A stretch of 64,000 bases of DNA from Escherichia coli (GTDB taxonomy: Bacteria; Pseudomonadota; Gammaproteobacteria; Enterobacterales; Enterobacteriaceae): NCBI RefSeq assembly GCF_002854065.1, contig NZ_CP024147.1; one strand, 5' to 3'. This document shows, piece after piece, positions 21,016 through 21,981 of this stretch (position 1 is the stretch's first letter; each line of letters opens with the position of its first letter). A program made the translations under genes and the position numbers. The notes under the pieces were generated by a model that was not told the DNA's origin, searched no databases, and saw nothing but the letters and a program-made list of their open reading frames with translations.

Positions 21016-21981
21016 ATGAGAACCGTTAAGGTATTTGAGGAAGCCTGGCCCTTACATACCCCGTTTGTGATTGCCCGGGGAAGTCGCAGTGAAGCGCGCG
21101 TGGTGGTGGTTGAACTGGAAGAAGAGGGTATTAAAGGCACCGGCGAATGCACGCCGTATCCGCGTTATGGAGAAAGTGATGCCTCGGTAATGGCGCAAAT
21201 TATGAGCGTCGTACCGCAATTAGAGAAAGGGCTGACACGGGAGGAGTTGCAAAAAATTCTCCCTGCCGGCGCAGCACGTAATGCGCTGGATTGTGCATTG
21301 TGGGATCTGGCCGCGCGAAAACAGCAGCAATCGCTGGCTGATTTGATCGGCATAACGCTTCCCGAGACAGTTATCACTGCACAGACGGTTGTCATCGGTA
21401 CGCCTGATCAGATGGCCAATAGTGCATCAACACTCTGGCAGGCCGGCGCGAAATTACTGAAAGTGAAGCTGGATAACCATCTTATCAGTGAGCGGATGGT
21501 GGCAATTCGCACAGCTGTGCCCGATGCCACGCTGATCGTTGATGCAAATGAATCCTGGCGTGCAGAAGGGTTGGCGGCACGTTGCCAGCTATTGGCGGAT
21601 TTAGGCGTTGCGATGCTTGAACAACCGCTTCCTGCGCAGGACGATGCGGCGCTGGAGAATTTTATTCATCCGTTGCCGATTTGTGCTGATGAAAGTTGTC
21701 ATACTCGTAGCAATCTGAAGGCGCTGAAAGGGCGCTATGAGATGGTTAATATTAAGCTCGATAAAACCGGTGGTCTGACGGAAGCGCTGGCGCTGGCAAC
21801 TGAAGCGCGTGCACAAGGTTTTCGTCTGATGCTGGGCTGCATGTTGTGTACCTCTCGTGCCATTAGCGCCGCTTTACCGCTGGTGCCGCAGGTCAGTTTC
21901 GCCGATCTTGACGGACCGACCTGGCTGGCGGTAGATGTGGAACCGGCGCTTCAGTTCACGACGGGCGAATTGCATCTTTAG
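21016..21981 (+). CDS. ycjG: L-Ala-D/L-Glu epimerase YcjG (enolase superfamily)
   Basis: ORF track 20974..21981; start trimmed to MRTVKVFEEAWPL (321 aa). Confidence 0.88.
   Translation: MRTVKVFEEAWPLHTPFVIARGSRSEARVVVVELEEEGIKGTGECTPYPRYGESDASVMAQIMSVVPQLEKGLTREELQKILPAGAARNALDCALWDLAARKQQQSLADLIGITLPETVITAQTVVIGTPDQMANSASTLWQAGAKLLKVKLDNHLISERMVAIRTAVPDATLIVDANESWRAEGLAARCQLLADLGVAMLEQPLPAQDDAALENFIHPLPICADESCHTRSNLKALKGRYEMVNIKLDKTGGLTEALALATEARAQGFRLMLGCMLCTSRAISAALPLVPQVSFADLDGPTWLAVDVEPALQFTTGELHL

Follow-up and report, generated by a model that had tools for sequence, protein, structure and literature searches.

A 26-nt tail-to-tail overlap of ycjG and mpaA in Escherichia coli is probably an ordinary convergent overlap

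The convergent genes ycjG and mpaA of Escherichia coli share their last 26 nt. We conclude that this is most likely an ordinary tail-to-tail overlap that arose without selection for overlap, and that any interference between the two genes is probably a small side effect. The overlap is already annotated, appears on a published list of excludons and belongs to a common, well-explained class. The analysis was centred on a window of 64,000 nt from E. coli (contig NZ_CP024147.1) and was extended to the same locus in related species.

Results

The overlap joins two genuine coding genes

The ycjG gene ends in ...GGC GAA TTG CAT CTT TAG, and its stop codon lies inside the end of mpaA on the opposite strand (Table 1). 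On the YcjG side, the shared stretch comprises part of the F314 codon, the codons for T315 to L321 and the stop. On the MpaA side, it comprises the stop, the codons for S242 back to K236 and part of the P235 codon. Read on the opposite strand, the final two letters of the Phe314 codon together with the opening letter of the Thr315 codon form the mpaA TGA. The 26-nt overlap had been noticed in a sequence-only reading of this stretch and is confirmed here, with identical gene ends given by the sequence, the ORF list and RefSeq. In NZ_CP182139.1, which is identical to the window over 20900-22800, RefSeq/PGAP places both genes at the positions listed in Table 1, and a 26-nt ycjG/mpaA overlap is likewise annotated in RefSeq for a K-12-like strain. 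The locus was found in 5413 of 5426 complete E. coli genomes.

Structures, Pfam domains and orthologues in at least 80 species identify ycjG and mpaA as genuine coding genes in these frames. PDB 1JPD matches YcjG over its full length, up to the last residue, L321, and Pfam assigns the domains MR_MLE_N and MR_MLE_C, the latter extending to residue 318. MpaA carries a Peptidase_M14 domain. PDB 5HXD matches MpaA residues 1-237 and its chain ends at D237, the codon of which is already within ycjG, and the Vibrio structure PDB 4AXV aligns to residues 6-235. Since the frames match solved structures, the two stops cannot be moved by annotation choice. An alternative mpaA start (TTG at 22744, in place of ATG at 22684) leaves the overlap untouched. 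It had been suggested that another choice of stop or start might remove the overlap; this is ruled out, as the stops are fixed and the start is far from the overlap. An artefact of annotation or sequencing, with one of the genes truly ending earlier, has next to no chance of being the explanation: the frames agree with solved structures as far as the last YcjG residue and MpaA residue 237, the same ends occur in 5413 genomes, and the junction was surveyed in 80 species.

The gene order of the neighbourhood is tyrR, tpx, ycjG, mpaA, an SDR oxidoreductase gene, two alpha/beta-hydrolase genes, pgrR and mppA. Strains differ between mpaA and pgrR. The window carries an intact SDR oxidoreductase gene and the two alpha/beta-hydrolase genes there (22975-25483), where the K-12-like strain PD007 (L002, 3862-5041) has only a single hydrolase gene (ycjY) and an NAD(P)H-binding remnant of 62 aa. 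By this comparison, the ymjC/ymjD region of K-12 seems to be what a deletion has left of the mpaA-terminated operon. Colinearity of the window with NZ_CP182139.1 is limited to 7201-24200; the first 7 kb are displaced by 777 nt, later parts by 1-15 nt, and IS1 copies match elsewhere. This indicates that the window comes from a strain other than that of NZ_CP182139.1, with IS-related rearrangements.

Table 1. Features at the ycjG/mpaA junction (positions in the window).
Feature	Position	Strand	Basis or remark
ycjG CDS	21016..21981	+	L-Ala-D/L-Glu epimerase, 321 aa; ORF list, RefSeq, PDB 1JPD, Pfam
mpaA CDS	21956..22684	-	Murein tripeptide amidase, 242 aa; ORF list, RefSeq, PDB 5HXD/4AXV, Pfam
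Convergent overlap	21956..21981	both	26 nt, read from sequence
ycjG stop TAG	21979..21981	+	Sequence and ORF list
mpaA stop TGA	21956..21958	-	Reverse complement of TCA; sequence and ORF list
MpaA tail codons K236-S242, non-conserved	21959..21979	-	Variable among relatives
1-nt length difference, 26-nt clade vs 10-nt clade	21982..21984		GAT here vs GGCT or similar; 80-species junction alignment
Hairpin past mpaA stop	21889-21923	-	CAGGTCGGT...ACTGACCTG
C-rich, G-poor RNA past mpaA stop	21716..21815	-	141-240 nt past stop; candidate Rho loading region
C-rich, G-poor RNA past ycjG stop	22322..22461	+	341-480 nt past stop; candidate Rho loading region
Two RNase III-type dsRNA duplexes inside mpaA	22479-22501, 22533-22556		Huang et al. 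2020 (PMC7373196) Table S3, p19 capture

Conserved protein cores abut at the junction

To place the overlap among relatives, the locus was taken from 80 species-level Enterobacteriaceae genomes (L numbers below), each junction was measured and the nucleotide sequences were aligned. The genes ycjG and mpaA are convergent in all 80 species and overlap in 75. The overlap is 10 nt long in 45 species (Enterobacter, Klebsiella, Kosakonia, Leclercia and others) and 26 nt long in 24 species of Escherichia, Citrobacter and Salmonella, as well as in L012, where ycjG is damaged. Three species have a 4-nt overlap (L042, L048 and L055), one has 33 nt (L065) and one has 47 nt (L024). Five species (L053, L056, L058, L060 and L062) have a spacer of 88-331 nt and no overlap. 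Beyond the 80-species set, the overlap is 26 nt in Pantoea, 21 nt in Erwinia and 19 nt in Cronobacter, where it is made by a longer YcjG (327-332 aa) crossing the end of a short MpaA. A zero-spacer junction is thus present in 78 of the 83 species checked, in two families (Enterobacteriaceae and Erwiniaceae).

Some of the surveyed loci have features of their own. The ycjG match in L012 (Citrobacter koseri NCTC10786) is 53% identical with gaps and meets a stop after 120 codons, with mpaA intact. Shortened forms of ycjG occur in L057 (279 aa) and L076 (316 aa), and mpaA is intact in both. L060 (CACSKA010000006.1) is titled Chryseobacterium sp. 18061 and has an Enterobacteriaceae-type mpaA/ycjG locus, with an MpaA 85% identical to that of E. 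coli; the record is very similar to one from the same study, L056, which bears the title Citrobacter sp. 18056, so mislabelling or contamination is likely.

The C-terminal FTTGxLHL of YcjG is nearly invariant within Enterobacteriaceae, and the conservation of MpaA stops at about W233-H234-P235. Beyond this point the MpaA tail varies (KDAIRPS, KDGVARS, RDEAVRS, KDGVDPS); it is QR in 237-aa forms and is missing in 235-aa forms. The conserved cores thus adjoin without a spacer, and the overlap consists of the unconserved MpaA tail. There is a simple explanation for the persistence of the no-spacer state: deletions would cut conserved residues, so that only insertions can break the junction.

In five lineages a spacer is present. 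The 88-nt mpaA-ycjG spacer of L053 (3726-3815) is a REP-like palindrome (GCCCGGTGGCGCTGGCGCTTACCGGACCTACGG and its complement). Inserts of 284-331 nt split the two genes in L056 (3726-4039), L058 (3729-4014), L060 (3726-4030) and L062 (3726-4058), and each contains a small hydrophobic (membrane-protein) ORF of ~40-50 aa (...EWEDESVATQDELMKRMIDTVAAVVLV...) downstream of ycjG. In L056, L058 and L060 a strong bidirectional A-run/hairpin/T-run terminator (AAAAAACCCGC...GCGGGTTTTTTT) adjoins the mpaA stop, and the L062 insert has REP-like palindromes in its place.

Single-nucleotide changes move the stops

The alignment shows how overlaps of different length are related. The distance from the ycjG stop to GCCAGCG (MpaA R232-W233) is 3 bases in the 26-nt clade, not 4 as in the 10-nt clade. 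This 1-nt indel adjoining the ycjG stop shifts the frame of the MpaA tail past its old stop. In the shifted frame, mpaA next meets a stop opposite TT(C/T)-A of the YcjG Phe314-Thr315 codons; this stop is TGA or TAA in relatives, as set by the Phe codon (TTC vs TTT). Since the Phe-Thr pair of YcjG is conserved, a stop in the antisense frame is guaranteed and the 26-nt length is fixed. In all species of the 26-nt clade ycjG itself stops with TAG; the clades with 10-nt or 4-nt overlaps use TGA or TAA.

In L015, L017 and L018 (Citrobacter youngae group; near 3683-3708), a single A-to-T substitution gives mpaA a stop (TAA from AAA) and removes that of ycjG (AAG from TAG). Both stops have moved by 21 nt and the overlap is still 26 nt, with an MpaA of 235 aa and a YcjG of 328 aa. 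The step from 26 to 47 nt in L024 involved loss of the ycjG stop only.

The codon phase is 123:132, in which ycjG position 3 faces mpaA position 2, so a synonymous change in ycjG alters the MpaA tail. The variability of ycjG third positions was 0.885 bits inside the overlap (n = 8 codons only) and 1.13 bits outside it (n = 52), which is not clearly lower. This calculation left out the 10-nt clade, where the overlap involves just two sense codons. Low variability in the overlap is confined to a few sites, two Thr codons and the His codon, and could reflect weak constraint from the MpaA tail or shared ancestry.

The overlap is of a common kind

The three antisense frames at this junction allow overlaps of 4, 26 or 108 nt. 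Antisense stop-free runs in ycjG and mpaA have a mean of ~31 codons, so a run-on of 8 codons counts as short. The overlap is no more than chance would give.

The annotated record matching the window has nine convergent junctions, of which two overlap and seven have gaps of 42-130 nt. The second overlapping pair, ydbJ (+) and hslJ (-), shares TTAA at 44119-44122, the minimal 4-nt stop-on-stop form, and is also on the ExcludonFinder list (PMC12288877). Lillo & Krakauer 2007 (PMC2174442) counted 58 convergent overlaps in E. coli, explained the origin of such overlaps by stop-codon mutation, and found phase 123:132 to be the commonest in convergent overlaps of at least 5 nt. The ycjG/mpaA pair is like these pairs in its shared 3' ends, short length and phase, and also in its origin, in which a stop is lost or shifted and the tail runs to the next antisense stop. 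We see no essential difference between them.

No intrinsic terminator separates the two genes

Convergent E. coli genes are usually separated by a bidirectional intrinsic terminator. The E. coli ycjG/mpaA junction has neither a spacer nor a hairpin with a T-run at or near it, whereas bidirectional intrinsic terminators are present between the two genes in relatives with the inserted small gene. A consensus scan of the relevant strands over 20982-22998 detected no intrinsic terminator, and the minus strand has no terminator-like site from the mpaA stop to 20982. There is no significant inverted repeat with a T-run at the junction, the plus-strand fold over it is ordinary (z = -1.23), and Rfam gave zero matches at E <= 1 over 20300-23800.

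A minus-strand hairpin is located 33-67 nt beyond the mpaA stop (Table 1), and the 131 nt around it fold better than 200 of 200 shuffles (z = -2.98). We rejected this hairpin as a conserved element. It is kept in Escherichia and not family-wide among the 80 species, and it has no U-tract. Its 5' arm is held by YcjG codons and its 3' arm varies without compensation.

As there is no terminator between the stops or just past them, each transcript must enter the other gene. The sequence-only reading had made the same claim, and it stands: published antisense reads over both ycjG and mpaA agree with it. C-rich, G-poor stretches follow both stops (80-nt windows with C 0.31-0.35 and G 0.17-0.20; Table 1). 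Judging from composition alone, the transcripts probably have Rho-dependent ends inside the opposing gene. A literature search found no paper on Rho-dependent termination at ycjG.

Published data on transcription across the locus

In the ExcludonFinder 2025 map (PMC12288877), 165 convergent excludons occur in at least 50% of 58 MG1655 RNA-seq samples, and ycjG-mpaA is one of them. The map further names tpx-ycjG as a divergent excludon, and mpaA-ycjG-tpx is among its three noncontiguous operons of E. coli. The criterion, as described there, is that coverage-defined transcript ends overlap. The coding sequences of ycjG and mpaA themselves overlap, so this holds automatically once both genes are expressed, and the listing adds little. 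As a class, excludon pairs are reported in the same study to have higher synteny and rare single-cell co-expression.

Strand-specific read counts were taken from Huang et al. 2020 (PMC7373196) and are given in Table 2. Antisense reads amount to ~20-60% of sense reads for both ycjG and mpaA, according to these data, and the sense RNA of both genes falls, not rises, in the two RNase III mutants rnc-14 and rnc-38.

Table 2. Reads (RPM) for ycjG, mpaA and tpx, from Huang et al. 2020 (PMC7373196); the rnc-14 and rnc-38 columns give sense RPM in two RNase III mutants.
Gene	WT sense	WT antisense	rnc-14	rnc-38	p19 dsRNA
ycjG	51.2	10.0	39.0	33.5	29-54
mpaA	73.9	17.6	41.6	21.6	55-112
tpx	660	22.7	309.2	203.6	1563-5161

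The two duplexes captured inside mpaA correspond to MG1655 1388416-39, which matches the window with one mismatch, and 1388470-94, which matches it perfectly; they are situated 500-575 nt beyond the ycjG stop. In stationary phase, the p19 dsRNA of mpaA comes close to that of the top 13.5% of genes. Convergent 3' overlaps in general yield ~38-fold less p19-captured dsRNA than divergent 5' overlaps (PMC7373196). In the cluster data available from that study, the strongest dsRNA of the locus covers the whole of tpx (20391-20897; cluster S-116, top-20), not the ycjG/mpaA junction. The study attributes the tpx dsRNA to a tyrR-ycjG read-through transcript that is antisense to tpx and was annotated by Conway et al. 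(cited in PMC7373196). The ycjG gene may thus be partly transcribed from upstream of tpx. Our search of the literature on mpaA and antisense transcription returned nothing beyond ExcludonFinder, and no experiment on ycjG/mpaA interference was found.

Discussion

The murein tripeptide is cleaved by MpaA to give L-Ala-D-Glu, which YcjG then epimerises, so the two enzymes catalyse consecutive steps. The annotations at the locus agree with these roles of amidase and then epimerase. The PgrR regulon, as listed in PMC5934670, includes both genes. With a common regulon and consecutive steps, mutual exclusion would oppose the pathway. The sequence-only reading had proposed mutual antisense interference between the two enzymes, and we found meaningful interference of this kind to be unsupported. 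The shared PgrR regulon, the consecutive steps and the lack of a rise in sense RNA in rnc mutants speak against it, and so do the labile overlap length, the unconserved tail codons and the five lineages that have no overlap. The indirect evidence of the regulon and the rnc mutants points against reciprocal or mutually exclusive expression of ycjG and mpaA.

Excludons provide the closest comparison. The locus shares with them overlapping transcripts of adjacent opposite-strand genes, seen in published data, a published listing, and RNase III-type duplexes captured in mpaA. Classical excludons, however, pair opposing or alternative functions with reciprocal expression, whereas ycjG and mpaA code for enzymes that follow one another in a single pathway, and the PgrR regulon lists both. 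The pair is also unlike excludons in that the coding sequences themselves overlap, beyond the untranslated regions.

Selection might nevertheless keep the spacer at zero because ycjG and the ycjY-...-mpaA operon interfere with each other when transcribed. Colliding polymerases, together with cleavage of the paired 3' regions by RNase III, would then set the amidase:epimerase ratio, or would make expression mutually exclusive in single cells. We consider a regulatory role of this kind unlikely. It can draw on the ExcludonFinder map, with its listing of this convergent pair in at least half of the 58 samples and the class-wide high synteny and rare co-expression, on the antisense reads over both genes and the RNase III duplexes in mpaA reported by Huang et al., and on the conservation of the convergent, no-spacer layout in Enterobacteriaceae and Erwiniaceae. 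However, the listing is automatic for overlapping coding sequences when both are expressed, the sense RNA does not rise in the two rnc mutants, and the pair consists of consecutive enzymes of one regulon where typical excludon pairs are antagonistic. Neither the length nor the sequence of the overlap is conserved, and five lineages have a spacer of 88-331 nt, some with a strong bidirectional terminator.

Quite improbable, in our judgement, is a noncontiguous operon, in which long transcripts, either mpaA-(antisense ycjG)-tpx or tyrR-(antisense tpx)-ycjG, coordinate the locus. The two studies offer a listing of mpaA-ycjG-tpx by ExcludonFinder (PMC12288877), dsRNA across the entire tpx gene and a cited tyrR-ycjG read-through transcript (PMC7373196), and the minus strand lacks a terminator-like site from the mpaA stop to 20982. 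What underlies the ExcludonFinder call, however, is that coverage overlaps at either end of ycjG, not a demonstrated single transcript, and the density of ycjG antisense reads is ~11% of that of mpaA sense reads (10.0 RPM/966 nt vs 73.9 RPM/789 nt). Furthermore, tpx expression is ~9-fold above that of mpaA, so tpx must rely on its own promoter, and there is a promoter-like site at 20926-20899.

We therefore prefer an ordinary convergent overlap, for which we propose the following mechanism. The YcjG core (to L321) and the MpaA core (to W233-H234-P235) abut, with the WHP codons directly against the ycjG stop, and a presumably dispensable MpaA tail continues across the end of ycjG, in antisense, to the first in-frame stop. 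The 26 nt of Escherichia, Citrobacter and Salmonella would be due to a 1-nt indel that put the tail in the frame ending at the complement of Phe314-Thr315. As this would leave no room for a terminator, each RNA polymerase would read into the opposing gene, and the transcripts would probably end there by Rho-dependent termination or decay. Such read-through would yield low-level antisense RNA and some dsRNA cleaved by RNase III. Given the weak expression of both genes and their common regulon, any interference is probably small, a side effect and not a control device. Two observations weigh against a mere by-product. The persistence of the junction in 78 of 83 species and two families could reflect selection for transcript overlap, and the formation of mpaA dsRNA in stationary phase is not negligible in the data of Huang et al.

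A related proposal is that selection holds the zero-spacer junction even though its sequence drifts, and that read-through, from the mpaA operon under PgrR control and from ycjG or a tyrR-ycjG transcript, tunes the amidase:epimerase ratio in cis, in an excludon-like arrangement for cooperating, not antagonistic, enzymes. We regard this as improbable. If true, such cis-interference would bring genes that cooperate in a pathway within the scope of excludons, and nothing that we found favours it. What the ycjG/mpaA junction adds is modest: it illustrates step by step how such an overlap can arise and move in the Enterobacteriaceae, through an indel of 1 nt, a substitution that displaces both stops together, and a stop guaranteed by a conserved Phe-Thr pair.
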